Shown here piece by piece: positions 707 through 51,909 of a DNA stretch of 64,000 bases. Position 1 is the first letter of the stretch, and each line of letters starts with the position of its first letter. This stretch comes from Candidatus Micrarchaeota archaeon (lineage in GTDB: Archaea > Micrarchaeota > Micrarchaeia > Norongarragalinales > UBA97), in NCBI GenBank assembly GCA_016194335.1, contig JACQBR010000008.1, forward strand, positions 864 through 64,863, read 5' to 3'. Under the pieces are notes generated by a model. It was not told the DNA's origin. It ran no database searches and was given only the letters and a program-made list of their open reading frames with translations. A program made the position numbers and the translations under genes.

Positions 707-713
707 ATCCCTT

Positions 714-2913: not shown

Positions 2914-2984
2914 GTGGGGTTAAAAACGGTTTTGGGGCTTAAGATTATTTTCCAGATGAGAAATTTGATTTTTGGGGGAATGAT

Positions 2985-3680: not shown

Positions 3681-3869
3681 GCCGCTTGCACGCCCCGCCG
3701 CTTTTGGGGGGATGAAGCGCCCTCCGGATGGGGGGGCAGTGAACCATTTAAATACTTTTGCGGATTCAATACTTTCGCAATCCACCTTGGCTTATTCGAG
3801 CCGTCAGCTTTTTTGGGGGTTCGAATTGTTTTCCATTCCTTAACGACTTTTTGCGGAGTTGATTTTTCC

Positions 3870-4499: not shown

Positions 4500-4584
4500 A
4501 GCCCCCCAATCGAGTCCAATGCCCGACCAGAATTTTTCTCAGTTCTTCCCAACCCCCCGGTGCCTTCTGCATCAAGCCGGAATC

Positions 4585-4726
4585 CCGTAATGGCAATCCC
4601 ATAGAGTCAAGCCCATAATGCAACGCAGTTTTTTCCCGCATTTGGCGGTCTTTCCGTGATGGCAATCCCAGAGGGTCAAACCTTTAATGCAGAGGGAGGT
4701 TTTTCTTGCCGCATTACGCGGTTTTC
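4585..4726. repeat. Two tandem copies of a roughly 70-nt direct repeat, about 80% identical, upstream of aCPSF1
   Basis: ccgtaatggcaatcccatagagtcaagcccataatgca... compared with ccgtgatggcaatcccagagggtcaaacctttaatgca..., directly abutting. Confidence 0.6.
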
Positions 4727-4791
4727 CCCCAGTGGGAAGACGAGCAACGTAACATATTTTTTTCAACCAACAACGCAGGTGCATCGATAGG

Positions 4792-7700: not shown

Positions 7701-8424
7701 CGACGCGAAGCTCTCCGAAATCATCCGCACCGCAACCGGCCGCAGAGGCAAGGTCCTCATTCCCGTCCTCGCCTCTGGCCGCGCGCAGGAGCTGATGCTC
7801 ACGCTTGAGGAGCAGTTTTCCAACCCCGACTTCACCGTCTATATGGACGGCATGAGCCGCGAGGCAAGCGCAATCCACACTGTATATCCGGAATACCTGC
7901 GCCGCAACATCCAGCGCCGCATCCTGCAGAACGACTCGCCTTTCGACAAGCCGATGTTCAAGAACATACAGAACAACGACCACCGCAAGGCCATTGCCGA
8001 GTCGGACGAGCCCGCTGTGATTCTCGCGCCAAGCGGGATGCTCACCGGGGGGCCCAGTGTCGAGTTCCTCAAGCTGCTTGCCGACGACGCGCGCAATTCC
8101 CTCGTATTCGTGAGCTACCAGGGCGCACTCACGCTGGGCCGCAGGCTCCAGCAGGGGGAGAGGGAAGTGCCGGTGCTCAACCGCGCGAACAAGCAGGACT
8201 CGCTGAAGATTAACATGGCCGTGCAGAGCATCGAAGGCTACTCCGGCCACTCCGACCGCTCACAGCTCGTCGCGTGGACGCGCAACATCCGCCCCAAGCC
8301 CTCGCGCATCTTCACAATGCACGGCGAGGAAGGAAAGTGCGAGGAGCTCGTGCGCACGCTGGGCAAGATGCTCCACGTCCAGACGCAGGTGCCGATGAAC
8401 CTCGACAGCATCAGGCTGAAGTAG
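4792..8424 (+). CDS. aCPSF1/FttA (KH plus metallo-beta-lactamase plus beta-CASP ribonuclease), interrupted by a 579-aa intein
   Basis: N-terminal KH domains. MBL motif HAHLDH is followed directly by Cys. The extein resumes SGFIPYLYAYGYEGPVYC... The extein is 631 aa, a typical aCPSF1 length. Confidence 0.9.
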   Translation: MVNDVKDLEELVNSVLPPQCELSKIELEGPQVVLYLKNMHAFYADVNLITRIASKVRKKVLVRSDSSILMPPERAKEKVAGLIPPEAGVKEIRFDPHFNEVLIEAAKPGVVIGKGGSVLKSITLTTGWSPRVLRAPTMPSEIETAIRNALLAGSEQRKKFLGVFGKRMLGAPAATEWVKMTALGGFREVGRSCFLLQTPKSNVIVDCGLNIDTSDATRAYPYLNAMGLSLEQIDAVILSHAHLDHCLHPDSLIQLANGEISSIEDLAEHGGDVVSYDFVSGATAGAVASKGATQKPEMLRIKTNLFSIRATPEHRFFVVNGLDVREKRAGELREGDFVAALRSSKFEGAANQPLPLVKVQELAFISGEGRLKMRQTRESFKLTRKQVAAIAGVPACQYAWLESGRHKPSRENLQKCLQALGLKTQDFGNEVSAIKSAELPKFSSEEFCQFLGYVLGDGNAHYQAHDANCNDLAVTDKDVANLEFYAQLAERVFNTKPRFSLKAGTNGGRNRVFFSSYVTKLMFALDKGIICRSRQRRVPKMIQRASNAELAAFFRGLFDAEGSVGHHSVRLVSSSEMLLRVAQMLLLRLGVQSCIEERKAVSQKAFSKEPFYCLAITHPRSLYAFGEKIGFSSEAKLQKFKAMAATVGNARSGKVDLIPIDGAALRAELADAGLFETDFDSRISRYWNWSHAPSREAVDGICAGIEARLQLLKTASSRQELRITQGQVGKALGVDQSVVSAIERGRISSCSIIYRETQEFLHLSRETCISKAEQLLLKLRMLVSQELAWVKIKSIENETPPEKVYDLSVPGYENFVADGFVVHNSGFIPYLYAYGYEGPVYCTPPTRDMMVLLQQDCVNVMNSEGGKAPYGERDIKKELMHVITREYGEVTDVTSDIRFTFHNAGHMIGSSIVHIHIGEGMHNLIYSGDIKFGRTKLCDTASTQFPRAETLMIEATYGGRNDIKPRIEDCDAKLSEIIRTATGRRGKVLIPVLASGRAQELMLTLEEQFSNPDFTVYMDGMSREASAIHTVYPEYLRRNIQRRILQNDSPFDKPMFKNIQNNDHRKAIAESDEPAVILAPSGMLTGGPSVEFLKLLADDARNSLVFVSYQGALTLGRRLQQGEREVPVLNRANKQDSLKINMAVQSIEGYSGHSDRSQLVAWTRNIRPKPSRIFTMHGEEGKCEELVRTLGKMLHVQTQVPMNLDSIRLK
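5527..7263 (+). mobile_element. Intein (579 aa) with a LAGLIDADG homing endonuclease and an HTH domain, inserted in the aCPSF1 MBL motif HAHLDH|SG
   Basis: Begins with Cys (CLHPDSL), ends with ..VVHN and the +1 residue is Ser. Internal LAGLIDADG blocks FLGYVLGDGNAHY and FFRGLFDAEGSV. HTH segment LTRKQVAAIAGVP. Confidence 0.85.
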
Positions 8425-35815: not shown

Positions 35816-35888
35816 GGGGGATTGGGGTAGCCTGGCATCCTACCAGCTTTGGGAGCTGGTGACCTGAGTTCGAATCTCAGATCCCCCA
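35816..35888 (+). tRNA. tRNA-Pro (anticodon TGG)
   Basis: Acceptor gggggat/atccccc, U8, anticodon loop tTTGGga, T-arm ctgag-ttcgaat-ctcag. 73 nt with no encoded CCA. Confidence 0.75.
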
Positions 35889-35941
35889 CTAAACCTTTTC
35901 TGCGGTGCTCCTCACTTCGTTCGTCCGCCCCTTGAAACGCG

Positions 35942-36556: not shown

Positions 36557-38218
36557 CTACTTCCTGCCATCCTGCAGCTTTTCAATCGGCACTTCCGTGT
36601 TTGCCTTTGTGCGTGCCGCGTCGCGGTTTGCCTTGAGCTTGCGCAGGAGGGTAAATCCGCCCGCGAGCGCTGCGAGGATGAGGATGACTCCCGCAATGAG
36701 CGTGAGGTCGATTTCGTTCTCGCGGCCCCGGAGGGAAACGAGCCGCGTGGAGAGGGCGGTTGCGTTCTGGCCCGCATTCTTGAACTGTTCGGCGGTGACG
36801 GGCCGGGCGGACTTGAGGTCCTGCTCGCTGAGCTGGAACGACTCGCGCAGTTGGGTGACCTGCTTCCGCATTTCGGCAACGCGCGGGTCGTTGGTGCCGA
36901 ATTTCTTCGTGGCGGTGGCGAGCGTCGCGGAGGCGTTGTTGATTGCGGATAGCGAGGCGGAGTAGTCGGCCAGGACTGCATTCTGGCTTTCGTAAGCGAG
37001 GGACGCGTCCGTTATTGCCTTGTCCGCGTCGGCAGCTGCGGTCGCGACGATGCTGGCGTTGGTCTGGTTGCCTATCGCGCCCAGCTTGGCGCGGGCGTCG
37101 GCGACTTTCTTGCCCAATCCCGGCAGGTCCATGTTCCTGTTGGCCTTCTTGAACGAGGAGGAGAGCCGTGCGTAATTGGCTTCAAGCGCGGCCACCTTGC
37201 CCTCCCTAAGCGCGGTTGCCTTCCTTATCGAGGCGGGAAGCGTCCTGCCCGCAGTGAAGGAGAGGATTGCATTTCCTATTGCTTGGGCGTTGGGGAACGA
37301 CGAGCCGGCGCTGGCCTGGCTGTCGATGTTGCCCATCGCGTTCACGTCGATGTTGCACCTGCCGAGCCCGCCGTCGTGGGCGAATTCGTATTGCGTGAGC
37401 ATCGAGGAGTGTGCCGAGTTGAACTGGTCGTAACCCGCCTTGAACGAGGTGATGTTGGACTTGATGTCTGAAAGTATGGGCGTTAGGCCTCCGACAGACG
37501 CCTGCTGGAATTCCCCGTCGAGGTCGGCAACGCGGCTGTTGATGTTGCGGAGGGAGCCGTTCATGGATGCGAATCCGGAGTTTATGGCGGCCTTTGCGGG
37601 GCCTATTGCCACCGAGAGGTTGAGGATGGAGCTCAGGTCGGTTGAATAGATGAGGGAGCACAGCCACGCCCTGCCGGCAGCGAGGATGAAGCAGAAGCTG
37701 CCCCGGTTGCCCTGGGTGAAGTTGTAGTAAACCTGGCTGCAGTAGTCCGTGCTGGACTTGAGGGAAGCGTAGTTGGTCTTTATCGCGTCAAGGTTGGCTT
37801 GCTTGAACGGGATGTCAAGCTGCGAAACGTATGCGGGGACTGCCGCGTTGATGTCCGAAAGCGTCGTGAGGGCGTTTTCGTTCTCGTCAAAGACGATTGC
37901 CTCGCTCCCGCCCACCTTCACCAGCGTGTATTTCCTGCCCCCCGCCGTGACGGGAACCTTTTCGGGCGTCTCGCCGGAGTTGAGGTAATAGCCTATTTCC
38001 GCATCCACGCCGGTGAGCGCGGGCTTTGCGGGGGTTGCGTTCACCGTGGCATTGCCGCCCGTTGGGGGTGCGCCCGCGGTCGCGTTTGCCGAGGCGTTAA
38101 GGGCGGCGCTGCCCGAAGCGTTTGCCGAGGCGGAACCGTTGGCCAGCGCCGAGGCAAAACCCGCGCTTAGCAGCAGGAACATCAACGGGAGGAGCAAAGC
38201 CTTCCTGGCAAAAAGCAT
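36557..38218 (-). CDS. Surface glycoprotein with a signal peptide, many N-glycosylation sequons, and a C-terminal TM anchor with a basic tail
   Basis: N-terminal signal. NGS, NAS, NAT, NQT and NIT sequons throughout. C-terminus LIAGVILILAALAGGFTLLRKLKANR. Confidence 0.65.
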   Translation of the reverse strand: MLFARKALLLPLMFLLLSAGFASALANGSASANASGSAALNASANATAGAPPTGGNATVNATPAKPALTGVDAEIGYYLNSGETPEKVPVTAGGRKYTLVKVGGSEAIVFDENENALTTLSDINAAVPAYVSQLDIPFKQANLDAIKTNYASLKSSTDYCSQVYYNFTQGNRGSFCFILAAGRAWLCSLIYSTDLSSILNLSVAIGPAKAAINSGFASMNGSLRNINSRVADLDGEFQQASVGGLTPILSDIKSNITSFKAGYDQFNSAHSSMLTQYEFAHDGGLGRCNIDVNAMGNIDSQASAGSSFPNAQAIGNAILSFTAGRTLPASIRKATALREGKVAALEANYARLSSSFKKANRNMDLPGLGKKVADARAKLGAIGNQTNASIVATAAADADKAITDASLAYESQNAVLADYSASLSAINNASATLATATKKFGTNDPRVAEMRKQVTQLRESFQLSEQDLKSARPVTAEQFKNAGQNATALSTRLVSLRGRENEIDLTLIAGVILILAALAGGFTLLRKLKANRDAARTKANTEVPIEKLQDGRK

Positions 38219-38272: not shown

Positions 38273-38399
38273 CCCGCTGTAGCTCAATCTGGCAGAGCAC
38301 CTGACTGTAGCCAAAAAGCGCGCTTGCACGAATGCGATGAATGCAAGCCAGTCCTCGTCAGAAATCAGGGTGTTGGGAGTTCAAATCTCCCCAGCGGGA
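38273..38399 (+). tRNA. tRNA-Tyr (anticodon GTA) with a 53-nt intron at the canonical 37/38 position (38311..38363)
   Basis: Acceptor cccgctg/cagcggg, D-arm gctc..gagc, anticodon stem cctga/tcagg, loop cTGTAg then the intron, T-arm gggag-ttcaaat-ctccc. Confidence 0.75.
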
Positions 38400-39114: not shown

Positions 39115-39187
39115 GCCTTGGTGGTGTAGCGGTCTAGCATAATGGCCTGTCACGCCGTTGACTCGGGTTCGAATCCCGACCAGGGCG
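39115..39187 (+). tRNA. tRNA-Asp (anticodon GTC)
   Basis: GCCTTGGTGGTGTAGC...CTGTCAC...TCGGGTTCGAATCCCGACCAGGGCG closely matches archaeal tRNA-Asp. Confidence 0.85.
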
Positions 39188-39220
39188 CCTCTTCTTCTTT
39201 CCAGCCCTCTCGCGCGAGGG
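39177..39220. repeat. Direct repeat copy 1 (44 nt), starting with the last 11 nt of tRNA-Asp. att-like
   Basis: cgaccagggcgcctcttcttctttccagccctctcgcgcgaggg is identical to 40412..40455. Confidence 0.8.
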
Positions 39221-39426
39221 CATCCAGCTTGGAGTTCACATCCCCTAACGGGGCGCTTAACCGCATGCGCCGAAATAGGGGTTCACTCAATGTTCAGTCC
39301 GCACAGCTTACTTTACAATCGATTGTTAGGGCGTGTGCCTAAGAGTTCTACCCGCATGTTTTAGGCATACTTTTTATAGACTAAATGTGTGCTAAGCCTT
39401 AAATAGTCCGCCTGCCTATTACTCGC

Positions 39427-40359
39427 ATGCGCACGCGGCTCAAGGTGGTGAACGGCCGGCAGTATTACTATCTGGAGGAGTCCATCCGGCTTGAGAAGCC
39501 AGTGGTCTACTCTGTTTTTTTGGGCAAGCGGATTCCCGCAAAAAAAGAGCTTGAAGCGAAGAAGGAGGGGTTGCTCGCCAAGATGTACGGCTCGCTTCTG
39601 GCTGGAGCAGAACGCCTCTTCCTTTCGCGGGAGCAGCTCGTTGAAGCCGAGAAGCTGCGTAGGCGATACGTGCAAAAAGTCAGGAAACTCGGCAAGGTTG
39701 CGCGGGATGAGAGGGAGGAAGTGGATGCAGTCAATTTCGTCTACACCACGCTTACCACCGAAGGCGTTCCTATTACCAGAGAGGACGCCAATCTTGCCTA
39801 CAAGTTCGACAGAAAGAATGTCAAGAACCTGCGCGACGAGAACCTGCGCGTTGCGCTCGACATGATCAAGGGCCTCAGGTTCGTCAAGGAAGGCAAGAAA
39901 GGGCTAACGCTTGATTTCCTAGCCAGGCTGCACGGCATCATCATGGCGCAGTACGGTGAACGAGCGCCTGGAGAATTCCGTTCAAAGCAGGCATACATTT
40001 ACCTCAAGAGCTACCAGCGGGCTGAAGAAATAGGCTTTCGGCCTCCAGCCCACCAAGAGGTAACGAAAAAACTCCGTGAGCTCGTCGAATGGTACAACGC
40101 CAACGAGGGAACGCTAAACGCCATCGAACTGGCCGCCCTGCTGCACCTGCGCTTTTACATGATTCACCCGTTCGAGGACGGCAACAAACGCGTTTCAAGG
40201 CTCTTGCTCAACAAGGCCCTCTTCGACAAGGGCTATCCCCTGCTAAACATCTCGAAAGACTCCCGAAGCTATTTCGACGCGCTCATAACCGCGGTCGAAC
40301 GGAGGGACGAAAAAGCCTTCGTGCAATTCGTCTACGAACAATTCATCGCACGCAAGTAG
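39427..40359 (+). CDS. fic: Fic/Doc-family protein (putative AMPylator)
   Basis: HPFEDGNKRVSRLL is a variant of the Fic motif HxFx(D/E)GNGRxxR. It sits between the att-like direct repeats. Confidence 0.8.
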   Translation: MRTRLKVVNGRQYYYLEESIRLEKPVVYSVFLGKRIPAKKELEAKKEGLLAKMYGSLLAGAERLFLSREQLVEAEKLRRRYVQKVRKLGKVARDEREEVDAVNFVYTTLTTEGVPITREDANLAYKFDRKNVKNLRDENLRVALDMIKGLRFVKEGKKGLTLDFLARLHGIIMAQYGERAPGEFRSKQAYIYLKSYQRAEEIGFRPPAHQEVTKKLRELVEWYNANEGTLNAIELAALLHLRFYMIHPFEDGNKRVSRLLLNKALFDKGYPLLNISKDSRSYFDALITAVERRDEKAFVQFVYEQFIARK

Positions 40360-40411
40360 TCGGGAGTTCCTTTTCCGTTCTCGGGGACGGCCCATCTGAC
40401 GGCCAGCCATG

Positions 40412-40455
40412 CGACCAGGGCGCCTCTTCTTCTTTCCAGCCCTCTCGCGCGAGGG
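40412..40455. repeat. Direct repeat copy 2 (44 nt), att-like
   Basis: Identical to 39177..39220. It is followed by ggcgtgtgcctaa, which also occurs at 39329-39342 about 110 nt downstream of copy 1. Confidence 0.8.
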
Positions 40456-40709
40456 GGCGTGTGCCTAACCTTTGGCGCGTAGCCCTTTCAAGGCGCTCCA
40501 ACTCCCGTCTGCCCGCCGATGGCATTTCGGAAGCGGAACGTTTAACCTTTTTTTAAAACGGCCGCGCATAGACTATCGTGCCGCTCCCCTAGAAGGCACC
40601 CCTGAAAACGCGCCTTTTTCCCCTTCTTTCTTTATTGGCTTTCTTTCGGGATTATTGTAGTGCCTAACTCTTTCCGGTTGAGTGCAAAACGCCCGGTCAT
40701 GCCAATCGC

Positions 40710-41780
40710 TCAGCCTGCGTTTTCGTAGTTGTACATCGCCGCGATTTCCGTTGCTGAAAGGGCGCGGGCGTACACGTGCGCCTCGTCGATCTGCCCGTTG
40801 AGGTTTTCGGCGTTGTAGTCAGTTCCCCCTCCGGCATACCAGTTGCGCGAGCCGGTGATTGCGTTGGCGTTTCCTGCGGAGTAGACTGGCGCGCCATTGA
40901 GGTAGAGCGTCACCGTTCCTGAAGACCTCACCCACGCGACGTGGTACCATTGGTTCGCGCTAAGAACCGGCCCGCCGCTTGTGGCTGCGGTGGCGTAATA
41001 GTTGACAATGCCGTTGTAGACATATAATTCAACCCCGCCGGCATTTCCAGAGCCGTAGTTGCCCATCACAAAATTAGCGACAGCTGGATTGACGAGATTC
41101 ACCCACGCGGTTGCCGTGAAATCCCCCGTGCCGGTTATCAACGGGGTTGAAAGGCCGATTTTCTGGCTTGAGCTTGGCCCGGCAAACGAATAGCACCCTC
41201 CCTTCTTGCAGGATGGAACGAATGTCGGCGGGCCGTTGAGGTTGCCGTTGTTGCCGCTGGGGCTCGCGTCAAGGGCGTTGTTTTCAAGGTGCAGCGAGAG
41301 CACCGCGGTGGAGTCCACCCAAGGGAGCCATGCGCCTTCGTACCTTCCGCGGATTGTCCCGGAAAGCGTGTGGTTGATTCCGCTCCGGGCGTTCACGTAC
41401 CATCCCCTTACCGCGCCTTGGTATGTGCTTCCGGGCGCACCTGAAGGCAATGCCCCGGACGCCTTGCACGTCGTGTTCCCCCCGGCTGCGACGGAGGCGG
41501 GGCTGCATGAGCCCCCTGCGACGGAGATGTTGCTTATGGCGTTTCCGAGCTGGTTGTTCAGAATGATCGTGAGCTTTCCGAGCGGGTCGACTGAAAAATC
41601 GCTTGCCAGCATTCCGGAGAACCCCGATGCGCTTTTGACGCCGATGAAGGACTCGGGGCTGAAGACGCCGGTGTACCACAAGGCCGCGCCGATGATGACG
41701 ATTGCGAGGATGGCCCAGCCGTAAGTGACGAGGTATTCGAGTGCGGACTGTCCCCTCGGGCGTGCAGGTTGCAATGCCAT
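40710..41780 (-). CDS. Type IV pilin-like protein (class III signal peptide) with a C-terminal LamG/ConA-like lectin domain
   Basis: PRGQSALEYLVTYGWAILAIVIIG is an archaeal prepilin peptidase site followed by a hydrophobic helix. C-terminal domain with W.HVAWV....LYLNG resembles Laminin_G_3. Confidence 0.65.
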   Translation of the reverse strand: MALQPARPRGQSALEYLVTYGWAILAIVIIGAALWYTGVFSPESFIGVKSASGFSGMLASDFSVDPLGKLTIILNNQLGNAISNISVAGGSCSPASVAAGGNTTCKASGALPSGAPGSTYQGAVRGWYVNARSGINHTLSGTIRGRYEGAWLPWVDSTAVLSLHLENNALDASPSGNNGNLNGPPTFVPSCKKGGCYSFAGPSSSQKIGLSTPLITGTGDFTATAWVNLVNPAVANFVMGNYGSGNAGGVELYVYNGIVNYYATAATSGGPVLSANQWYHVAWVRSSGTVTLYLNGAPVYSAGNANAITGSRNWYAGGGTDYNAENLNGQIDEAHVYARALSATEIAAMYNYENAG

Positions 41781-42016
41781 GGGATGAATCTCCAATGGAC
41801 TACTGTTTGGAGGTTTATAAAGCGGCATCAAACCGCACTTTGTCTCGTCAACCGCCGGCCTTATTTCAAGGGCTGGTTTGGTTCAGAAGGAAATCACTTC
41901 CTGCCCGGATATTGCCGCAGCATCCCTTACTCTCACCGCCCGCCTTTGCTCACTCTTTTATACCGATGATTCCTTACTTTAGTTGCAAAGTTCGTTTTTG
42001 GAGGATTGATTTGAAA

Positions 42017-42295
42017 ATGGGAATGCATGGAACGTGCAAGAAGGTAATGGGCGTTTTGGTTTTGGCATCGGGCGTCGCCTTGGCAATGGGCGGGTGGGGC
42101 TATCTCACCGTCACCGGCGCGCTTAAGGTGGCCGGCGTTCTCTTCGTGCTCAAGGGCCTTTCTGCACTTGCCCACTCGATGAACATGTGCCCCCAGTGCA
42201 GCGAGGCTTGCGGCCACGGCGGCAATTGCGACTGCGGCCACGGGGGATGCTGCATGCAGGAAAAGGCGGCCGCGCACAGGGGCAGGCGCAGGTAA
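42017..42295 (+). CDS. Small 2-TM membrane protein with a C-terminal Cys/His-rich metal-binding tail
   Basis: MGMHGTCKKVMGVLVLASGVALAMGGWGYLTVTGALKVAGVLFVLKGL then CPQCSEACGHGGNCDCGHGGCC. Confidence 0.4.
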   Translation: MGMHGTCKKVMGVLVLASGVALAMGGWGYLTVTGALKVAGVLFVLKGLSALAHSMNMCPQCSEACGHGGNCDCGHGGCCMQEKAAAHRGRRR

Positions 42296-42440
42296 GTTCC
42301 AACCGGAAACAGGAGGCAAGCCCCCAGGGGGATGTTGGGGGCTAAAGCTTCCCATTTCACTTCAGATAGCCTTTTAATCTTTTCTTTTCTAATAACTACT
42401 GTCGCAGTCAAGCGTAGCGTATTCTTGGGTTGGTATAAGG

Positions 42441-42680
42441 TTGGGGACCGCAGAGCATATACTCGTGCCTAAGCATTCCATTGCCACCGAGCAGGAGGTG
42501 GCGGGTTTGCTCGAGAAATTCGGCAAGCCAGTGCAGGCCCTGCCCCTCATCGCAACCGACGACCCGGCAATCAAGGAATTGGGCGCAAGGGAGGGCGACG
42601 TGATCCGCATCGACCGCAACAGCCCCACGACCGGCAAGGTCGAGCCTTACTACCGCCTGGTTTCAGAGCTTGACGACTAG
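42441..42680 (+). CDS. rpoH: DNA-directed RNA polymerase subunit H (Rpb5-like)
   Basis: HILVPKH motif. 79 aa. Immediately upstream of rpoB. Start codon TTG or GTG. Confidence 0.8.
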   Translation: MGTAEHILVPKHSIATEQEVAGLLEKFGKPVQALPLIATDDPAIKELGAREGDVIRIDRNSPTTGKVEPYYRLVSELDD

Positions 42681-42798
42681 GGATTTGCATTACTCGCCCA
42701 TTCGCCGCAATGGCGATTCGGGAAAATCTACAAACGGACCCCTGCGGGCCATCTGCTCTTCGGGGCCGCAGTTGGGTTTTTCGGAGCGTGGTGGGAAG

Positions 42799-44268
42799 AT
42801 GGCCTTTGAGGAAATCACGGCTGATTATCTGCGGGAAAACAGCCTGGTCAAGCAGTTCATAGAGTCTTACGACAAGTTCGTCGAGACGGGCTTGCAGGAA
42901 GTGGTGGACAGCCAGCAGGTCATCGAGCCGCAGATTGAGGGGCTCGTGCTGCGCCTGGGCCGCATCCGCGTGGAGAAGCCGCGCGTGATCGAGGTGGACG
43001 GGTCTTCCCGCGTTTTCTACCCGGCCGAAACGCGCGCGCGCGACCTTTCGTACACCGCGCCGCTCTTTCTGGAAATCACTCCCGTCATCCACGGGAGCGA
43101 AAAGCGCACTGAAGAGGTGTTCGTGGGCGAACTGCCCGTGATGGTGAAGAGCAAGCTCTGCTACCTCAACGGGAAGTCCGCACAGGAGCTTGTCGAACTT
43201 GGCGAGGATGCCAAGGATCCGGGGGCGTATTTCGTCATCAACGGGACGGAAAAGACGCTCGTCACCCTCGAGGACCTTGCGCCAAACCGCATTCTGGTCT
43301 CGCGGGAGAAGGACGGCAAGTCGGTTCAGTCCAAGATTTTCTCCACCCGACTGGGATTCCGCGGCCGCTGCACCGTCGACCGCAGCACGGAAGGCAAGCT
43401 GAGCGTGACGATGCCCAGCTACGGCAAGCCCCTCGAGCTCACCCTCACGCTCAAGGCGTTGGGCATGGACAAGGTGGAGAAAATCGTCGAGGCGTTTTCG
43501 CAGGACCCCGAAGTGCAGAACGACATTGCCCTCAACCTCGAGATTGACGAGGCCAAAAACCGGCGCGAGGCCCTTGAGATAATCGGGAAGCGCGCGGCCC
43601 CCGGCCAGCCTGTTGAGTACCAGGTGCGGCGCGCGGAACTGCTTCTTGACCGTTATCTCCTTCCCCACATCGGCATCGACGAGAGCGCGCGCATCCCCAA
43701 GGCGTATTTCCTCACGCGCATGGCAGAACGCGCCACGATGGTGGCGTACAGGAAGCGCGCGCCCGAGGACAAGGACCACTATGCCAACAAGCGCCTCAAA
43801 ATAAGCGGAATGCTCATGGAAGAGCTGTTCCGCTATTCCTTCCAGTTCCTCGTCAAGGACGTGGCGTACCAGATGGAGCGCGCGAACGTGCGCGGCCGCA
43901 AGATGTCGATGTTCGCCGTCGTTCGCCCCGACGCCCTCACCGAGAGGCTGAAGTATTCAATGGCAACCGGCAACTGGGTGGGCGGGCACACGGGCGTTTC
44001 CCAGCCGCTTGACCGCTACAACTACATCAGCGCAATGAGCTTCCTGCGCCGCGTCACTTCCCCCTTGGCAAAGAAGCATCCCCACTACAAGGCGCGCGAC
44101 CTCAACGGCACGCACTTCGGCAGGCTCGACCCCAACGAAACGCCGGAAGGCCCCAACTGCGGCCTGGTAAAGGCGCTCGCTCTCTTCAGCGAAGTCACCA
44201 CGGGCACTCCCGAGGAGGAAGTGGAGCATTTGCTCAAGAAGATGGACGTCAGCCTCAGGCTGGACTAG
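42799..44268 (+). CDS. rpoB2: DNA-directed RNA polymerase subunit B'' (N-terminal half of split RpoB)
   Basis: Rpb2 N-terminal domains. Start at MAFEEITADYL. Confidence 0.92.
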   Translation: MAFEEITADYLRENSLVKQFIESYDKFVETGLQEVVDSQQVIEPQIEGLVLRLGRIRVEKPRVIEVDGSSRVFYPAETRARDLSYTAPLFLEITPVIHGSEKRTEEVFVGELPVMVKSKLCYLNGKSAQELVELGEDAKDPGAYFVINGTEKTLVTLEDLAPNRILVSREKDGKSVQSKIFSTRLGFRGRCTVDRSTEGKLSVTMPSYGKPLELTLTLKALGMDKVEKIVEAFSQDPEVQNDIALNLEIDEAKNRREALEIIGKRAAPGQPVEYQVRRAELLLDRYLLPHIGIDESARIPKAYFLTRMAERATMVAYRKRAPEDKDHYANKRLKISGMLMEELFRYSFQFLVKDVAYQMERANVRGRKMSMFAVVRPDALTERLKYSMATGNWVGGHTGVSQPLDRYNYISAMSFLRRVTSPLAKKHPHYKARDLNGTHFGRLDPNETPEGPNCGLVKALALFSEVTTGTPEEEVEHLLKKMDVSLRLD

Positions 44269-44374
44269 CGCAGTTCCATTTTGGTTTTTCGTTTTGTTTT
44301 TTTTTTGGTGCGGGAATCAAAAAAGATATTTTCAGGAAATCAAGGTCGTCATCAACTTCAGGGTGGTAGGGCAG

Positions 44375-46189
44375 ATGGCAAACAAGGCTTCGGTTTATCT
44401 CAACGGCCGCTTCGTCGGCTTCAGCGACAACGGCGAGAAGCTCGCGAGGGAATTGCGCGAGAAGAGGCGCGAGGGCGCGGTCCATTACCACACCAACGTC
44501 GCGTTCTACAAGAACACCAACGAGGTGTTCGTAAACAGCGACGAGGGAAGGCCGGTGAGGCCGCTTATAGTGGTGAAGGGAGGCAAGCCGGCAGTCACTC
44601 CCGAAATGCGCGAAAAGGTCCGCGCGGGCTCGCTTCACTTCAACGATTTGGTCAAGCAGGGCTCGATTGAATTCCTCGATTCGGAAGAGGAGGAGAACGC
44701 CCGCGTTGCGATGGACGAGTTGGTCATAGGGGAGAAGACCACGCATCTCGAAATCGACCCCCTCGGCATCCTCGGCTACGCAAGCGCCCAAGTCCCGTTC
44801 CCCGAGTACAACATGGCCCCACGCGTGCTGATGGCAGCCCAGCACACGAAACAGGCAATGGGGCTTTACGCGTCCAACTTCAACCTGCGCACCGACACGC
44901 GCGGCCACATCCTTTTCTACCCCCAGCGCCCGCTCGTCCAGACGAGGGCATACCGGGTGCTGGGGCAGGAGAAGCGGGCAAGCGGGCAGAACTTCGTCGT
45001 CGCGATCCTTTCGTACAAGGGCTTCAACATGAACGACGCGGTGGTGCTCAGCCAGAGCGCAATCGAGCGCGGGCTTGGCCGCAGCGCATTCCTGCGGACA
45101 TACACGGCCGAAGAGCGCCGCTACCCCGGGGGCCAGCGCGACAGGTTTGAAAACCCGCAGGAATTCGTGCAGGGGTACATGGGCGAGGAGACGTACAGGC
45201 ATCTTGACGAGGACGGCATCATCAGCCCGGAAACGCAGGTTGCCGGCGACGCGGTGCTCGTGGGAAAAACCTCCCCGCCCCGTTTTCTCAAGGAGGTTTC
45301 GGCCCTTGACGTGGAGACCGAACGCAGGCGCGAGTCCAGCGTGACGGTGCGCAGCAACGAGAGCGGCGTTGTCGACGCGGTCATCATGAGCCAGACCACC
45401 AGCGGAAACAGGCTTGCGAAAATCCGCGTGAGGAACACCTGCATTCCCGAAATCGGCGACAAGTTCGCATCCCGCTTCGGCCAGAAGGGAGTAATCGCCC
45501 TTGTCGCAAAGCAGGAGGACCTCCCATTCACCAAGGACGGCGTCACTCCCGACCTCATCATCAACCCCCACGCCATCCCCGGCCGCATGACTGCCGGCCA
45601 CCTTCTCGAGATGATCGGGGGCAAGGCATCGTGCGTCGACGGGGCGCTCAAGGACGGCACGGCATTTACCGGCGCGAAGCAGGAGGACTTCGAAAAGGCG
45701 CTTCTGGCATCCGGCATGTCCCCCGCGGGGCAGGAATACCTCTACGACGGCAGCACCGGAAAGATGATGGCAGCGAAAATCTTCGTGGGCGTCATTTACT
45801 ACCAGCGCCTCCACCACCTCGTCCAGCTCAAGATGCACGCGCGCAGCCGCGGGCCCGTGCAGATGCTCACCCACCAGCCCACGGAAGGCCGCGCCCGCGA
45901 GGGAGGCCTGAGGCTGGGGGAGATGGAACGCGACTGCTTCATCGGCTTCGGCGCGGCCCTTCTCCTGCGCGAGAGGATGATCGACGCTTCGGACAAGACC
46001 GTGGAGCTGATTTGCAACCCCTGCGGCGGCGCGGGCGTGTACGACAAGGTCAAGAAAATCAAGTACTGCTCGCTCTGCGAATCCGGCGACGTGGAGGAAG
46101 TGGAGATGTCCTACGCCTTCAAGTTGCTGCTTGACGAGATGAAGAGCATCGGAATCAGCCCCAAGATAAAGCTGAAGGCCAGGGGATGA
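44375..46189 (+). CDS. rpoB1: DNA-directed RNA polymerase subunit B' (C-terminal half of split RpoB)
   Basis: Rpb2 C-terminal domains GDKFASRFGQKG and C-terminal zinc ribbon CNPCGG...CSLC. Start at MANKASVYLNG. Confidence 0.92.
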   Translation: MANKASVYLNGRFVGFSDNGEKLARELREKRREGAVHYHTNVAFYKNTNEVFVNSDEGRPVRPLIVVKGGKPAVTPEMREKVRAGSLHFNDLVKQGSIEFLDSEEEENARVAMDELVIGEKTTHLEIDPLGILGYASAQVPFPEYNMAPRVLMAAQHTKQAMGLYASNFNLRTDTRGHILFYPQRPLVQTRAYRVLGQEKRASGQNFVVAILSYKGFNMNDAVVLSQSAIERGLGRSAFLRTYTAEERRYPGGQRDRFENPQEFVQGYMGEETYRHLDEDGIISPETQVAGDAVLVGKTSPPRFLKEVSALDVETERRRESSVTVRSNESGVVDAVIMSQTTSGNRLAKIRVRNTCIPEIGDKFASRFGQKGVIALVAKQEDLPFTKDGVTPDLIINPHAIPGRMTAGHLLEMIGGKASCVDGALKDGTAFTGAKQEDFEKALLASGMSPAGQEYLYDGSTGKMMAAKIFVGVIYYQRLHHLVQLKMHARSRGPVQMLTHQPTEGRAREGGLRLGEMERDCFIGFGAALLLRERMIDASDKTVELICNPCGGAGVYDKVKKIKYCSLCESGDVEEVEMSYAFKLLLDEMKSIGISPKIKLKARG

Positions 46190-46321
46190 GCCCCCCATTC
46201 ATCCCTTGATTTTTTTTCCCGTTGATGAATTGTTTTTTTTTGTTTTTTGTTTTCGTCAAGTAGATTCTTCAGATTGTTTTGCGGTTCTCAAATCCGTTCA
46301 AACGCCGGCTGGTGGTAAAAA

Positions 46322-49300
46322 ATGAAGGTCATTGGTGCGATTGAGTTCGGCGTTTTCTCCCCCGAGCAGGTGCGCAAGATGTCGGCCGTGAAGATCACCG
46401 TGCCCGACACTTACGACGAGGACGGCTACCCCATCAACGGCGGGCTTGCCGACCAGCACCTCGGCGTCATCGACCCGGGCCTGCGCTGCAAGTCCTGCGG
46501 CGGCCGCATGAAAAGCTGCTCGGGCCACTTCGGCCACATTGAGATGGTGCGGCCCGTCATCCACGTGGGGTTCGCAAAGGCCGTTTACCACCTGCTCAAG
46601 GCGACGTGCCGCAAGTGCTCCCGCCTGCTTGTCGAGGACAGCACTTTTGAGAAGCCCAAGAAGGCCGCGGTCTGCCCCCACTGCGCCGAGCAGCAGGGCG
46701 CGATAAAGTTTGTCAAGCCCACGAGCTTTTTCGAGGACGTGGGCGGCAAGGAAAGGAGGCTTTTGCCCAACGAAGTTCGCGAGAGGATGGAGCACATTTC
46801 CGACGAGGACCTCAACACCCTCGGCGTGAAAATCAGGCCCGAGTGGATGGTCCTTACCGTCCTCATCGTCCCTCCGGTCACCGTGCGCCCCAGCATCACC
46901 CTTGAGACGGGCGAGCGCAGCGAGGACGACCTCACCCACAAACTCGTGGACGTGCTGCGCATCAACCAGCGCCTCGGCGAGAACATCGACGCCGGCGCCC
47001 CGCAGCTCATCATCGAGGACTTGTGGGAGCTTCTCCAATACCACGTCGCGACTTTCTTCGACAACGAGACCGCAGGCATCCCGCCTGCAAGGCACCGCAG
47101 CGGAAGGCAGCTCAAGACGCTCTTCCAGCGCCTCAAGGGCAAGGAAGGCAGGTTCCGCTACAACCTTTCGGGCAAGCGCGTGAACTTCAGCGGCCGCACC
47201 GTCATTTCCCCCGACCCCACCCTCGGCATCAACGAGCTCGGGGTTTCCGAGCACATCGCAAGGGAGCTTACAGTCCCGATTTTCGTCACCGAATGGAATC
47301 TCGAGCCCATCAAGGAGCTTGTCAAGGGCCATCCGGAAAAAATCAATTACGTCATCCGCCCCGACGGCAAGCGCAAGAAGCTCATCGGCCTCAACATCGA
47401 GGAAGTGACGGCGGAAATCGTCCCCGGCTACACTGTGGAGCGGCAGCTTATGGATGACGACATCGTGATTTTCAACCGCCAGCCCAGCCTCCACCGCGTG
47501 AGCATGATGGCCCACCACGTCAAGGTCCTTCCGGGAAAGACTTTCCGCTTCAACTCCGCCGTCTGCAAGCCGTACAACGCCGACTTCGACGGGGACGAGA
47601 TGAACATCCACGTTCCGCAGAACGAGGAGGCGCAGGCCGAGGCGGAAATCCTCATGAAGGCCCAGGAGCAGATCCTCTCCCCCCGCAACGGCGAGCCCAT
47701 AGTAGTTCCCGAGCTCGATCAGATTTCCGGCCTTTACATGCTTACCGCCAAGGGCGTGGAATTCCCCCGTTCGGAAGCGGCGATGATGCTTTCCCGCGCC
47801 GGCGTCAACGACGCCGAGTTCAAGGGGGAGAAGGTTTCAGGACGGGAAATCCTCTCCGCGATTCTCCCCAAGGAATTCGACTTCGAATGCGCCAGCCTCG
47901 CGTTCCACCAGAAGTGCAAGGAGTGCCCCGGGGGCAAGTGCGCCGAGCACGACTCCACCGTAGTGGTGAAGAACGGCAAGTTTTTGCGCGGCCATCTCGA
48001 CGGCCGCTCGAGCGACAAGCTCGTCCGCGCGCTATTCAAGGAATTCGGAAGCGACGCGGCGGCGAAATACCTCGACGCGGCAACCAAGATTTCCGTCGAC
48101 GTTGCCACCGACTTCGGCATCTCCCTCTCGCTTGACGACTACGCCATTACGGACAAGACCCGCGGGGAGCTCGGCGAGCTTTACCTCACGGCGCACAAGG
48201 GGGTGCGCAAGCTCATCCAGAAATACCGCATGAAGAGGCTCGCGCGGCTGCCCGGCAAGACGCTCAAGGAGACGCTGGAGGAGCAGGTGATGGACATCCT
48301 CGAGGCGGTTCGCCACGACGCGTGGGGCATAATCAAGACCCACGTGCGCAAGCACCCCGTGAAGTTCGGCGGGGCGGAAATAATGCACAACTCCGCGCTT
48401 CTCATGGCCGACTCCGGCGCGAGGGGCAAGCCCATCAACGTCGTGCAGATGGCTGGCATCGTCGGCCAGCAGGCCGTGCGCGGAAAGCGCATGCGCTCAG
48501 GGTACAAGGGCCGCATCCTTTCCCACTTCGCAAAGGGCGACCTTTCCGACCTCGCGCGCGGGTTCGTGCGCGACAGTTACGTCCGCGGCCTTTCCCCCCA
48601 CGAGTACTTCTTCCACGCCGCAGGAGGCAGGGACAGCGTCGTTGACAAGGGAGTCAACCCCGCCAAGACGGGTTACATGCAGCGCAGGCTCATCAACGCC
48701 CTTCAGGACATCGTGGTGCAGAAGGACCTCACCGCAAGCGACGCGGAGGGGAAAATCATCCAGTTCAAGTACGGCGACGACGGGATGCACCCGGCGGGGA
48801 ACGCCGTGGCATACGGCGAGCCCGTGGGAGTGATCGCGGCTCAGAGCATCGGCGAGCCCGGAACGCAGATGTCCATCCCTTCGGGTGAAAAAGTGGTCGT
48901 AAGCATTGACGGCGCGATGAAACCCGTGGCAATCGGGGAGTTCGTGGACGGGCTCATCGAGAAGCATGGCTCGATCAAAATAGGCGGGGCTTCGGTTGTG
49001 GACCTTCCCCAAAGCGCAGGCATTTGCGTCCCCAGCCTCTCGCAGGAAGGCAAGGTTGTTTTCAAGAGGCTCATTTCCGCCAGCAGGCACGAGTGCGGAA
49101 AGAAAATCCTCGAGATAACCACGCGTTCGGGAAGGAAAATCCGCGCGACCGACAACCACTCCTTCGTCATCCGCAAGGACAACAGAATCATTCCCGTCAT
49201 GGGAAGTTCCCTCAAGGTCGGCCAGAGGATTCCCGTTGTCAAGTCCATGCCCTCCCCCGCACTGTTTGCCCAAGGTGCCGAGAGCCTTGATTTGCAGCAA

Positions 49301-51334
49301 CACCTTCCAAAGAGCACCCACTGGTTTGGAAGCGAACTCAAAAAGGCGCTTGCGCCGGGCGTGATAAGCCGCGCGGGCCACAATGTTTCGTACACTATTC
49401 CCGTGGGCGCGGATGCGTTAAGGCACTACGCGGGGCATGGGAATTCATTCGAAATCGAGGACGGCTTTGTCTATCCAGTGCAGAACCACGGCAACGCGAG
49501 GATTCCCGAATCAATGCCCCTCGACTCGAAATTCGGCTGGTTTGTCGGGGCCTACCTTTCCGAAGGCAGCCTGAGCAGGTACAACGTGGGCATTTCAAAC
49601 ACTGACTCCGAGTTCATCGCAAGGACGAAGGGATTCGCCGACTCCCTCGCGCTCAAATACGCGGAGAAGGCCAACAGCCGCGGCTTTGCCTTGGGCAACG
49701 GCCTTACCATCAATTCAACCCTGCTTTCCGAACTGTTGCAAAAGACCTGCGGCAAGGGCTCGTCAAGCAAGCGCGTTCCTGAATTCGCCTTCAGCGCAAA
49801 CGAAAAGTTCATCTCATCGCTTCTTTCGGCGTATTTCGATGGCGACGGCAACGTGACGATGGAGCGCAATGCGATTCGCGCCTCTTCCAACTCGAAGGAA
49901 CTGATTGACGGGGTTGCACTGCTGCTCTGCAGGCTTGGCATCTTCTGCACCAAGCACTTCGCTTCGGGCCAGCACTGCCTCTCCATTCCGGGGGCGTACG
50001 CAAACCGCTTCAGGGAGAAAATCGGCTTCGTGTGGGCCAAGAAGTCTTCCTTACTTGGGAAACTTTGCACCAAGGAAACCAAGCGCATCTCTTACGACAT
50101 TCTCGACATGAAAGTCGGGTTCGGAAGCGTGATAGGCGACGCCGCCAGGAAGCTCGGAGTGCCCTCCCGTTTGGTCAGCAAGTTCACCAAGAAGCAGGAA
50201 ATCGGCGTGAAGACGCTTGCGAAATACGTTGACAAGTTCGGGGAACTCTCGCGCCAAAATAGCATCAACGTGGATAAAGAGCTTTCCGTAATGAAAGCCA
50301 TGCTTGAGGAAGACGTGGCGTGGGACGAGATTGTCGAGGTGAAGTTCGTCGACTCCACGCCCCTGGTCTACGACTTTTCCGTCGAGGGGCTCGAGACGTT
50401 CGCCACCTTCGACGGCGTGATTACGCACAACACGCTGCGCACCTTCCACTACGCCGGAGTCGCCTCGCTCGCGCAGCTCGGCTTCACCCGACTGGTGGAA
50501 ATCGTCGACGCGACCAAGAAGCCGAAGAGCCCCGTGATGGAAGTCTACCTTCGCAAGGAGCTTTCCAAGGACTTCGAGAAGGTCAAGAAGTTCGCCGCTT
50601 CTCTTGAGCAGCTCACGCTGGAGCAGGTTGCCGATGTGAGGGAGAATTTCGACCGCAAGAGCATCCGCGTCACCTGGGACGAGAAGTCGCTTCACGACAA
50701 GGCGGTGAAGGAAGACGAGATTTTCGAGAAGGTCAAGCTCGTCGCCCCCGCGGAGAAGACCCAGACTGGAATCACCGTCCGCCCCAAGGCAGACAGCATC
50801 CGCAACACCCGCAAGATCACCAACAAGCTTCGCGAAATCATCCTGCGGGGAGTGGCGAACATTTCCCGCGCCATCATCATCGAAAAGGCAGGGGAGTACG
50901 TCGTGGCGACGGAAGGGAGCAACCTCGAAGGCTTGCTGAAGATTCCCGAAGTGGACTCCTCGCGCACCACCACCAACGACATTACCGAAACCTACCACGT
51001 GCTCGGGGTGGAGGCCGGCCGCAACTCCATAATGAACGAGATGCTCAAAGTGCTCACCGCCCAGGGGCTCAAGGTCGACGCGAGGCACATCATGCTCATT
51101 GCCGACTCGATGACCTCCAAGGGCAAGCTCACTTCAGTCGGAAGGCACGGCCTTGCGGGGGAGAAGAGATCCGTCCTCGCGCGCGCGGCCTTTGAAGAGA
51201 CTGCCAAGCACCTCCTCAACGCCTGCATCAAGGGCGAGGAAGACCCCCTTCAGGGAATTGCCGAGAACATCATCATCGGCCAGACCATCCCCTGCGGGAC
51301 GGGCAAGGTCAAGCTCGAGATGACCATTGAGTAG
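46322..51334 (+). CDS. rpoA: DNA-directed RNA polymerase subunit A with the A' and A'' portions fused in one ORF, interrupted by a 520-aa intein
   Basis: Rpb1 zinc ribbon and the NADFDGD active site lie in the N-terminal part. GEPGTQM is followed by the intein, then TLRTFHYAGVA of the A'' region. There is no stop codon between the A' and A'' regions. Confidence 0.9.
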   Translation: MKVIGAIEFGVFSPEQVRKMSAVKITVPDTYDEDGYPINGGLADQHLGVIDPGLRCKSCGGRMKSCSGHFGHIEMVRPVIHVGFAKAVYHLLKATCRKCSRLLVEDSTFEKPKKAAVCPHCAEQQGAIKFVKPTSFFEDVGGKERRLLPNEVRERMEHISDEDLNTLGVKIRPEWMVLTVLIVPPVTVRPSITLETGERSEDDLTHKLVDVLRINQRLGENIDAGAPQLIIEDLWELLQYHVATFFDNETAGIPPARHRSGRQLKTLFQRLKGKEGRFRYNLSGKRVNFSGRTVISPDPTLGINELGVSEHIARELTVPIFVTEWNLEPIKELVKGHPEKINYVIRPDGKRKKLIGLNIEEVTAEIVPGYTVERQLMDDDIVIFNRQPSLHRVSMMAHHVKVLPGKTFRFNSAVCKPYNADFDGDEMNIHVPQNEEAQAEAEILMKAQEQILSPRNGEPIVVPELDQISGLYMLTAKGVEFPRSEAAMMLSRAGVNDAEFKGEKVSGREILSAILPKEFDFECASLAFHQKCKECPGGKCAEHDSTVVVKNGKFLRGHLDGRSSDKLVRALFKEFGSDAAAKYLDAATKISVDVATDFGISLSLDDYAITDKTRGELGELYLTAHKGVRKLIQKYRMKRLARLPGKTLKETLEEQVMDILEAVRHDAWGIIKTHVRKHPVKFGGAEIMHNSALLMADSGARGKPINVVQMAGIVGQQAVRGKRMRSGYKGRILSHFAKGDLSDLARGFVRDSYVRGLSPHEYFFHAAGGRDSVVDKGVNPAKTGYMQRRLINALQDIVVQKDLTASDAEGKIIQFKYGDDGMHPAGNAVAYGEPVGVIAAQSIGEPGTQMSIPSGEKVVVSIDGAMKPVAIGEFVDGLIEKHGSIKIGGASVVDLPQSAGICVPSLSQEGKVVFKRLISASRHECGKKILEITTRSGRKIRATDNHSFVIRKDNRIIPVMGSSLKVGQRIPVVKSMPSPALFAQGAESLDLQQHLPKSTHWFGSELKKALAPGVISRAGHNVSYTIPVGADALRHYAGHGNSFEIEDGFVYPVQNHGNARIPESMPLDSKFGWFVGAYLSEGSLSRYNVGISNTDSEFIARTKGFADSLALKYAEKANSRGFALGNGLTINSTLLSELLQKTCGKGSSSKRVPEFAFSANEKFISSLLSAYFDGDGNVTMERNAIRASSNSKELIDGVALLLCRLGIFCTKHFASGQHCLSIPGAYANRFREKIGFVWAKKSSLLGKLCTKETKRISYDILDMKVGFGSVIGDAARKLGVPSRLVSKFTKKQEIGVKTLAKYVDKFGELSRQNSINVDKELSVMKAMLEEDVAWDEIVEVKFVDSTPLVYDFSVEGLETFATFDGVITHNTLRTFHYAGVASLAQLGFTRLVEIVDATKKPKSPVMEVYLRKELSKDFEKVKKFAASLEQLTLEQVADVRENFDRKSIRVTWDEKSLHDKAVKEDEIFEKVKLVAPAEKTQTGITVRPKADSIRNTRKITNKLREIILRGVANISRAIIIEKAGEYVVATEGSNLEGLLKIPEVDSSRTTTNDITETYHVLGVEAGRNSIMNEMLKVLTAQGLKVDARHIMLIADSMTSKGKLTSVGRHGLAGEKRSVLARAAFEETAKHLLNACIKGEEDPLQGIAENIIIGQTIPCGTGKVKLEMTIE
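48872..50431 (+). mobile_element. Intein (520 aa) with a LAGLIDADG homing endonuclease, inserted at GEPGTQM|TLRTFH of RpoA''
   Basis: Starts with Ser (SIPSGEKVVV), ends VITHN with +1 Thr. Internal LAGLIDADG blocks GWFVGAYLSEGSL and LLSAYFDGDGNV. Confidence 0.8.
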
Positions 51335-51375
51335 GAAAGCGCGGGGTTAAGAACCCGACTTGAGTAGATGGTTTC

Positions 51376-51609
51376 ATGAAACGTCGTGCAACTTCAATCG
51401 TTCGGGGCCGCGTCCAGGGCGTCGGATACCGCGACAGGGTGTTGGAGAAGGCTCTGGAGCTCGGCATTGCGGGTTTTGTTGAGAACGAGCCCGACGGCAG
51501 CGTCAAGGTTGTTTGCGAAGCAGAGGAAGGAGTTCTCCAAAAATTTCCTTCCTCAATCGAGATAAAACACGAGCCGGACAAAGGAATCATTCTTGTCAAG
51601 TCGGTCTAA
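51376..51609 (+). CDS. acyP: Acylphosphatase
   Basis: VRGRVQGVGYR is the acylphosphatase signature. Confidence 0.8.
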   Translation: MKRRATSIVRGRVQGVGYRDRVLEKALELGIAGFVENEPDGSVKVVCEAEEGVLQKFPSSIEIKHEPDKGIILVKSV

Positions 51610-51651
51610 ACCTTTTTTTCCCAACCAACCGGAGAGTTCTCTTATTCTGAA

Positions 51652-51909
51652 GTGAAAATGGGAGAACTTCCTTCCGAAATTCGCGAAGGCTTCCGCACGG
51701 CATACAACTACTTCGGCCTTTTCAGCGAACGCACCGACGAAAATTTCAACCGGGTTGATGCCAAGTATGGCGTTATCCATCAGGAAATGATGGCGTTTCA
51801 GGCCACGATGAAGGAACTCGTCACGGCTCTGCGCGAAGACCGGGAAGAAATCAAAAGAATAAGCAAAGGCATCACAAAGATTGCCGACCGGCTCGCGCCC
51901 GAAGCTTAG
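51652..51909 (+). CDS. Hypothetical small protein (85 aa)
   Basis: ORF only. Confidence 0.3.
   Translation: MKMGELPSEIREGFRTAYNYFGLFSERTDENFNRVDAKYGVIHQEMMAFQATMKELVTALREDREEIKRISKGITKIADRLAPEA

Follow-up and report, generated by a model that had tools for sequence, protein, structure and literature searches.

In the PilC/PilB system of Streptococcus sanguinis, a class III signal and a pilin module are joined by a short linker to a C-terminal module of the concanavalin A (ConA)-like lectin/glucanase superfamily, and the lectin module of PilC binds sialylated glycans and heparin oligosaccharide probes and has been modelled at the pilus tip (PMC9934059, PMC8179133). The published survey of modular pilins searched with the IPR012902 motif, covered bacteria only and does not mention archaea. 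A comparable arrangement is known from the Tat-fimbriae of Haloarcula hispanica, where residues 1-146 of the subunit TafC resemble the major subunit and residues 203-360 are laminin-G-like, and where TafC has been modelled at the filament end with the laminin G (LamG) part facing outward (PMC11821415). In 'Ca. Mancarchaeum acidiphilum' Mia14, expanded LamG proteins, some of them associated with genomic islands and with loci for type IV pili, have been proposed to act in host interaction (PMC5498576), and a survey of archaeal type IV pili mentions DUF2341 adhesins, not LamG. Here, we describe a gene in a 64,000-nucleotide stretch of a Candidatus Micrarchaeota archaeon (assembly GCA_016194335.1, contig JACQBR010000008.1, positions 864 to 64,863; the whole of this stretch is referred to below as the window), which, with a probability that we put at roughly 70%, encodes a bimodular archaeal type IV pilin of the Micrarchaeota (DPANN) that displays a LamG/ConA-like head on the pilus for attachment.

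The gene is complete. It consists of an intact open reading frame (ORF) of 356 aa and a stop codon on the minus strand at window positions 40710-41780 (ATG at 41780-41778, stop at 40712-40710), as read from the ORF list and the sequence and as corroborated by an ortholog with the same neighbours. The protein, whose N-terminus reads MALQPARPRGQSALEYLVTYGWAILAIVIIGAALWY and which also contains the LamG stretch NQWYHVAWVRSSGTVTLYLNGAPVYS, is 100% identical to NCBI entry MBI3587913.1, deposited as a LamG domain-containing protein of a Candidatus Micrarchaeota archaeon and encoded on a contig of 124.8 kb. The sequence-only reading of this stretch had proposed a class III (prepilin) signal, and the N-terminus does have that layout: a basic 10-aa leader ending in R-G (MALQPARPRG, aa 1-10, nt 41751-41780 on the minus strand) is followed by QSALEYLVTYGWAILAIVIIGAALWY, with Gln at +1, Glu at +5 and a hydrophobic helix of about 25 residues. 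A six-frame search with a regular expression for N-termini resembling class III signals returned this as the single site in the 64 kb. The prepilin-peptidase cut is predicted after Gly10, where R-G/Q-S-A-L-E (the slash marking the cut) aligns with the G-Q...E motif of the family, invariant or nearly so among 52 members. In an alignment of these 52 relatives, Q+1 and E+5, whose spacing is that of an EppA/DUF361-like subclass of such signals, are invariant, as are L+4 and the block YLxTYGWAIL, giving the consensus QxxLEYLxTYGWAIL.

The predicted mature N-terminus and its hydrophobic alpha-helix, a putative polymerisation and membrane-anchor segment, occupy aa 11-37 (nt 41670-41750, minus strand), and the AlphaFold model places a helix at aa 13-37 with a predicted local distance difference test score (pLDDT) of about 90 along most of its length. 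When the pilin module was modelled separately (pLDDT 90), the same single long helix was followed by eight beta-strands at aa 50-146. These strands form the predicted pilin body, an Ig-like beta-sandwich at aa 38-148 (nt 41337-41669, minus strand) that is about 50% identical to stand-alone pilins, ends in GRYE, and contains three N-x-S/T sequons (N84, N102 and N136) and a Cys pair (Cys92/Cys105). Stand-alone homologs stop just before the sequence GAWLPWVDS, a short linker of low pLDDT with approximate boundaries at aa 149-157 (nt 41310-41336, minus strand). We considered and rejected a long disordered linker. The low pLDDT of aa 151-183 stems from the small depth of the alignment, as the N-terminal sequence canonical for LamG_3 domains is found in this stretch, which aligns to other LamG proteins from about aa 165.

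The relatives of the pilin module connect it to pili. With aa 1-170 as the query, 157 proteins were recovered at E<=1e-3, with identities of as much as 54% across about 83% of these residues; among the matches listed, nearly all are 130-170 aa long, have no Pfam domain, come from metagenome-assembled genomes of Micrarchaeota/Norongarragalinales and often occur as tandem paralogs. These stand-alone pilins of about 145 aa from Micrarchaeota and other DPANN archaea, annotated as 'hypothetical protein', are 45-54% identical to the protein across the entire pilin module and have in common with it the signal motif, the Cys pair and a C-terminal G(K/R)YE. They differ from it in that they are without the C-terminal domain and that many are encoded beside T2SSE and T2SSF genes. 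All of them terminate at G(K/R)YE, which is the point at which the pilin-LamG protein runs on into its LamG part, and the stalk is, judging by sequence, derived from this stand-alone family. The closest stand-alone homolog (P0008) lies directly 3' of a T2SSE ATPase gene (Pfam E=3e-33) and two T2SSF genes in the canonical type IV pilus locus of a groundwater micrarchaeote (L003), where a divergent operon (1-4847, minus strand) codes for a VWA protein of 1172 aa along with class-III-type proteins of 148, 128 and 382 aa. This divergent operon brings to mind a tip complex of minor pilins that includes a vWA adhesin of the PilY1 or PilB kind.

We also ran the family profile against a genome collection in which each GTDB species has one representative and which does not include the source genome. 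This gave 79 loci, mostly in Micrarchaeota, with some in Woese-, Nano- and Nanohaloarchaeota. T2SSE was found in 36 of the 79 by tblastn with the ATPase and platform proteins of L003, nearly always together with both T2SSF genes, and in most of these 36 the order is ATPase, T2SSF, T2SSF, pilin. The linkage of the stand-alone family to pilus machinery is thus established. Since the pilin module of our protein is about 50% identical to stand-alone pilins that end at the fusion point, this linkage indicates that the protein is a genuine bimodular archaeal type IV pilin. Most class-III-type proteins of the related loci are small, with 227 of the 239 distinct complete ORFs at 157 loci (about 95%) being under 200 aa, and a LamG domain was detected in four ORFs. 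Fusions of a class III N-terminus to LamG occur on other DPANN pilin scaffolds as well, in Nanoarchaeota (L047, 354 aa) and in Micrarchaeota (L066, the same protein as P0006, 288 aa), while in Woesearchaeota (L054) a class-III protein of 1139 aa with two LamG domains shares its operon with the ATPase, the platform genes and three small pilins.

The C-terminal part was identified by Pfam, library searches and Foldseek as a LamG/ConA-like jelly-roll head at aa ~158-356 (nt 40713-41309, minus strand), with a Cys191/Cys196 loop and a C-terminal 'RALSATEI' helix. Laminin_G_3 (PF13385) matches aa 205-347 (nt 40740-41168) over model positions 4-151 of 151 (E=6.4e-22; 78.8 bits, cut-off 27.6), far more strongly than expected by chance, which confirms the Laminin_G_3/ConA-like domain that had been proposed from the letters of the stretch. 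The proposed size of about 150 aa turned out too small, the domain being nearer 200 aa. An exhaustive HMMER search with the full-length query matched 24,127 library proteins at E<=0.001; among the best 150 of these, almost all are large multi-LamG proteins, and most of the best-matching stretches begin at about aa 165-200 of the query, so that the domain starts near aa 158-168 and not at aa 205. A word-indexed search with the LamG half alone gave one match and was uninformative. The LamG-like fold that the sequence-only reading anticipated is also recovered in structure prediction: Foldseek against the PDB with the AlphaFold model returned ConA-like jelly rolls at a probability of 1.00, including the lectin-like domain of trypanosomal trans-sialidase, AbnA domain 4, clostridial neurotoxin (BoNT) HCN, PTX3 (pentraxin) and PAPP-A. 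AbnA domain 4 (5hon_A) superposes on the model with a TM score of 0.65 and a root-mean-square deviation of 3.3 A over 184 columns. By analogy, the head may serve in adhesion and carbohydrate binding.

The fusion belongs to a small family of paralogs. We searched a 5.8-billion-cluster library and a 1.8-billion-representative library for full-length relatives, and the only end-to-end relatives in them are P0002 (377 aa) and P0162 (409 aa), at 37-40% identity; a metagenome scan found stand-alone pilin relatives only and no further pilin-LamG fusions. LamG fusions on this same pilin subfamily amount, in the databases searched, to three 90%-identity clusters, to which ORF reading added one paralog, all from one groundwater lineage. 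A sibling assembly of this lineage, GCA_016212415.1, is 99.6% identical to window 39299-51839 and carries an ortholog of the gene at 99% identity with identical neighbours. Including this ortholog, the sibling has at least four intact pilin-LamG genes and one broken copy. Three adjacent pilin-LamG genes are clustered at L158 6737-10629, and the other loci lie at L160 6231-7349 and L159 10001-11086. P0162 is present in this assembly and is adjoined by a 399-aa paralog with a (Thr-Pro)n stretch between the stalk and a LamG-like head. P0280, also in the sibling, has as its neighbours a LamG protein longer than 1000 aa and toxin-antitoxin genes of the HEPN/MNT and HicB kinds. The broken copy (L158:9989-10629) is frameshifted and without the pilin beta-sandwich. 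It is very probable, from accession numbers near MBI3587913.1, that the assembly of the window itself also has a P0162-type (MBI3588648.1) and a P0002-type (MBI3588756.1) paralog.

The fusion junction is common to P0162, P0280 and the gene at L158:6737-7936. The paralogs are 38-58% identical in their stalks and 27-34% identical in their heads, and the helix-coding 5' 100 nt are 91% identical at the nucleotide level between two of them. At least four intact paralogs with a common stalk and diverged heads suggest a small repertoire of alternative adhesive heads. One could go further and ask whether these LamG-headed pilins, four or more on one type IV pilus, form a cassette-like repertoire in which the heads determine the host or ligand specificity of an episymbiont, perhaps recombining via the conserved 5' region. 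We offer this tentatively, and consider it rather doubtful at present; if true, such a head-swapping repertoire would be an archaeal counterpart of adhesin and pilin variation in bacteria.

Local signals agree with the ATG start. A TATA-like box, TTTATAAA, read off the sequence at 41814-41821 (minus strand), lies 34-41 nt 5' of the ATG and is a putative archaeal promoter, and a GGAG at 41790-41793 (minus strand), 10-13 nt 5' of the ATG, is a possible Shine-Dalgarno element. A longer ORF initiated by TTG at 41831 is unlikely, as the TATA-like box would fall within it, and we therefore regard the ATG at 41780 as the likely start. The GC content of the gene is 0.60 against 0.58 for the window, and its GC content at third codon positions (GC3) is 0.73, which is below that of core genes (about 0.84) and near that of the neighbouring Fic gene (0.70) and other non-core genes. 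A foreign origin was rejected on this composition, which is close to that of the window and, in GC3, like that of other non-core genes; as a sign of accessory origin, the GC3 value is weak at best.

Taken together, these data would fit the following route. The precursor would enter the membrane via its class III signal, and a prepilin peptidase of the FlaK/PibD type would cut the 10-aa leader off between Gly10 and Gln11. The hydrophobic helix, with its Glu+5, and the Ig-like body would allow incorporation into a type IV pilus, for the assembly of which an ATPase of the T2SSE family and platform proteins of the T2SSF family would be supplied in trans. We assume that this machinery is encoded elsewhere in the genome of the source organism, and machinery encoded in trans is documented for the PilA pilins of Haloferax (PMC4858521). 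The LamG/ConA-like jelly roll, on a linker of about 10-20 aa, would be exposed on the filament as a binding head, most likely on a low-abundance subunit that is located at the tip or sporadically along the filament, by analogy with PilC and TafC. There, the head may hold the cell to a host cell or a surface through a ligand that is a glycan or a glycoprotein.

Several observations weigh against a LamG-headed type IV pilin of this kind. No gene for T2SSE, T2SSF or an A24 prepilin-peptidase-like protein lies within the window, and about 45 kb of sibling contigs likewise contain no pilus machinery or prepilin peptidase. No curated pilin model matches the 356-aa protein, and PF04021 matches only weakly, in 7 of the 52 relatives. 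With the pilin module as query, Foldseek finds generic Ig-like sandwiches only, none at E<=0.001; the sole PDB sequence match of the family profile is the Aap pilin of S. acidocaldarius (8q30), at a marginal E=0.038, and an hhalign comparison with the solved pilin aligned the hydrophobic helix alone, at a probability of 22%. With no curated signature matching, the case for pilin membership is built on gene neighbourhood, the signal motif and predicted architecture. Mean pLDDT in the full-length AlphaFold model is 73; values exceed 90 in the pilin half and are modest, about 50-87, in the LamG half, owing to its shallow alignment. Since some PF13385 domains are not lectins, carbohydrate binding by the head is a prediction. 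Finally, class III signals also occur on archaeal surface proteins that are not pilins, such as the surface-anchored sugar-binding proteins of Sulfolobus.

This last point leads to the explanation that the protein is anchored at the surface and does not polymerise, its class III signal and helix only tethering the head to the membrane or S-layer in a bindosome- or pseudopilus-like structure with no long filament. Its solitary gene, with no assembly genes near it in the window, and the failure of curated pilin models to match would suit such a protein, and the bindosome has been discussed by Makarova (2016; PMC4858521). However, the homology is not confined to the N-terminus and spans the whole body (aa 38-148), at about 50% identity to small pilins of T2SSE/T2SSF operons, and neither the Glu+5 nor the helix motif that subunits use for packing varies among the 52 relatives; we therefore consider an unpolymerised anchor unlikely. 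If the protein does polymerise, how much of the filament would it make up? Since it keeps Glu+5 and is close to the presumed major pilin, the protein may be incorporated into the shaft or even act as the major subunit, in which case the shaft would consist wholly of LamG-headed pilins, the filament would be sheathed in lectin-like domains and the paralogs would be alternative coats. In five loci of this population, every class-III-type gene is a LamG fusion and no stand-alone pilin is present, and the distance of the pilin module from stand-alone pilins matches that between paralogs; large major pilins also exist in bacteria, M. xanthus being an example (bioRxiv 10.1101/2023.07.22.550172). These loci cover about 100 kb of the lineage's genome, though, and a stand-alone pilin may lie elsewhere. 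Given further that the related loci overwhelmingly encode class-III-type proteins of under 200 aa, and that the bulky modular pilins of characterised systems are predicted at the tip (PMC9934059, PMC8179133), a filament made entirely of such subunits seems quite improbable to us.

That the fusion is instead an artefact, whether through chimeric assembly or as a functionless fusion gene in decay, is highly improbable. The frameshift that splits a neighbouring paralog in the sibling genome (L158:9989-10629) indicates that the family does undergo decay. Against this, the ORF studied here is intact and is 99% identical, with the same neighbours, in an independent assembly, the junction is conserved in paralogs with 37-38% overall identity, a TATA-like box lies at the expected distance, and the GC content of 0.60 is genome-like. 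A pilin that carries a LamG head for attachment is the reading that we retain.

The gene is monocistronic and convergent with a Fic gene, and it abuts rpoH and a gene for a 92-aa Cys/His-rich membrane protein. This latter protein (about 42017-42295, plus strand), encoded divergently from the pilin gene, has two transmembrane segments and the Cys/His-rich tail CPQCSEACGHGGNCDCGHGGCC. No Pfam family matches it, and it is conserved in the sibling assembly. The sequence-only reading had set the gene in an accessory stretch bounded by tRNAs, with the Fic element and this membrane protein. Both are indeed neighbours, but all three tRNA genes lie on one side of the gene, with the rpoH-rpoB''-rpoB'-rpoA' operon, in which rpoB is split, on the other. 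This operon with its split rpoB, and the archaeal tRNAs, agree with the source being a DPANN archaeon. The tRNA genes are tRNA-Pro (35816-35889), tRNA-Asp (39115-39189) and an intron-containing tRNA of 127 nt (38273-38399, plus strand; Rfam 54.7 bits) that ARAGORN missed, and counting the last of these there are three within 3.4 kb. A perfect 44-nt direct repeat (39177-39220 and 40412-40455), made up of the last 13 nt of tRNA-Asp and 31 nt downstream, encloses only the Fic gene (39427-40359). The pilin-LamG gene begins 255 nt past the repeat and so stands outside it, and its membership of a Fic islet was rejected, the repeat bracketing Fic alone. The Fic/DOC-family islet is 1.2 kb long, has a lower GC content of about 0.54 and no integrase, and resembles an att-type scar such as a tRNA-targeted insertion would leave, or else a duplication; the contig of the sibling assembly ends about 80 nt from the first copy of the repeat.

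Surface proteins and inteins are also predicted elsewhere in the window. Between tRNA-Pro and the intron-containing tRNA lies a gene for a predicted 553-aa surface protein (36557-38218, minus strand). Starting with a signal sequence and ending in a transmembrane anchor, this protein has a long helical region and is rich in N-x-S/T sequons; it has no significant family match. Positions 83-706 (plus strand) probably encode the C-terminal end of an S-layer protein, and in a contig that is 98.3% identical to window 3-5699 (L006), a 933-aa S_layer_N/S_layer_C protein ends just 5' of a shared 159-aa gene (window 911-1390). Inteins with LAGLIDADG homing-endonuclease domains are present in RNA polymerase A' (1670 aa; 46322-51334, plus strand) and in a KH/beta-CASP (CPSF-like) nuclease (1210 aa; 4792-8424, plus strand), these calls resting on Pfam matches for the equally long genes found at equivalent sites of the sibling contigs, which are 99% identical.

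How does this protein compare with the systems described so far? The S. sanguinis PilC/PilB system is close in design, with the same succession of class III signal, pilin module, short linker and C-terminal ConA-like module. Here, the module boundary falls at GRYE, where stand-alone pilins have their C-terminus, and one paralog has (TP)n at this place. The pilin module itself differs, being of an archaeal kind with a G/QSALEYL signal and an Ig-like beta-sandwich in place of the bacterial N-methyl-Phe motif of IPR012902. No Pfam match to that N-methylation motif (IPR012902/PF07963, G/F or M-x-x-x-E) was found in the protein, whose +1 residue is Gln, and we accordingly rejected a bacterial-type pilin. 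Lacking the motif, the protein would work like a modular pilin but outside the bacterial class. There is also no detectable sequence homology between PilC and the pilin-LamG protein; PilC has an extra Ig-like module and is encoded with partners in a pil locus, whereas the gene described here is solitary, and binding is demonstrated for PilC but predicted for the pilin-LamG head.

Haloarcula hispanica TafC (NCBIfam NF052521), at 373 aa, is a filament subunit of nearly the same size, and the LamG halves of the two proteins are weakly similar (E=8.9e-8). TafC is nevertheless exported by the Tat pathway and assembled by donor-strand exchange, and is not a type IV pilin, whereas the leader of our protein has RPRG and no RR motif. 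NF052521 scores 31.6 bits against its cut-off of 410, over the last ~87 residues only (aa 270-356), and with no twin-arginine motif, membership in the TafC/Tat-fimbriae was rejected. The LamG-like surface proteins of DPANN archaea, as in Mia14 (PMC5498576) and Undinarchaeales (PMC7414124), resemble our case in phylum and lifestyle and in their expanded jelly-roll LamG proteins. They differ in being encoded near pilus loci or in having ordinary signal peptides, a direct pilin-LamG fusion not being described among them; the role is predicted in both cases.

In the literature that we searched, a direct archaeal pilin-LamG fusion appears to be undescribed. At the same time, its parts are known and their combination could have been predicted, the protein already has an NCBI entry that names only LamG, and the underlying design has precedents. 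The most interesting aspect is the multi-paralog family with one stalk and several heads; that one family of stalks bears such diverged heads in a genome of roughly 1 Mb hints at a diversification of ligands or host range. DPANN archaea such as the Micrarchaeota are thought to live attached to hosts through contact molecules that are largely unknown, and the pilin-LamG protein is a concrete and testable candidate for one. Set beside PilC, it predicts that the modular-pilin principle, demonstrated in Streptococcus and surveyed in bacteria only, extends to archaeal pilins.

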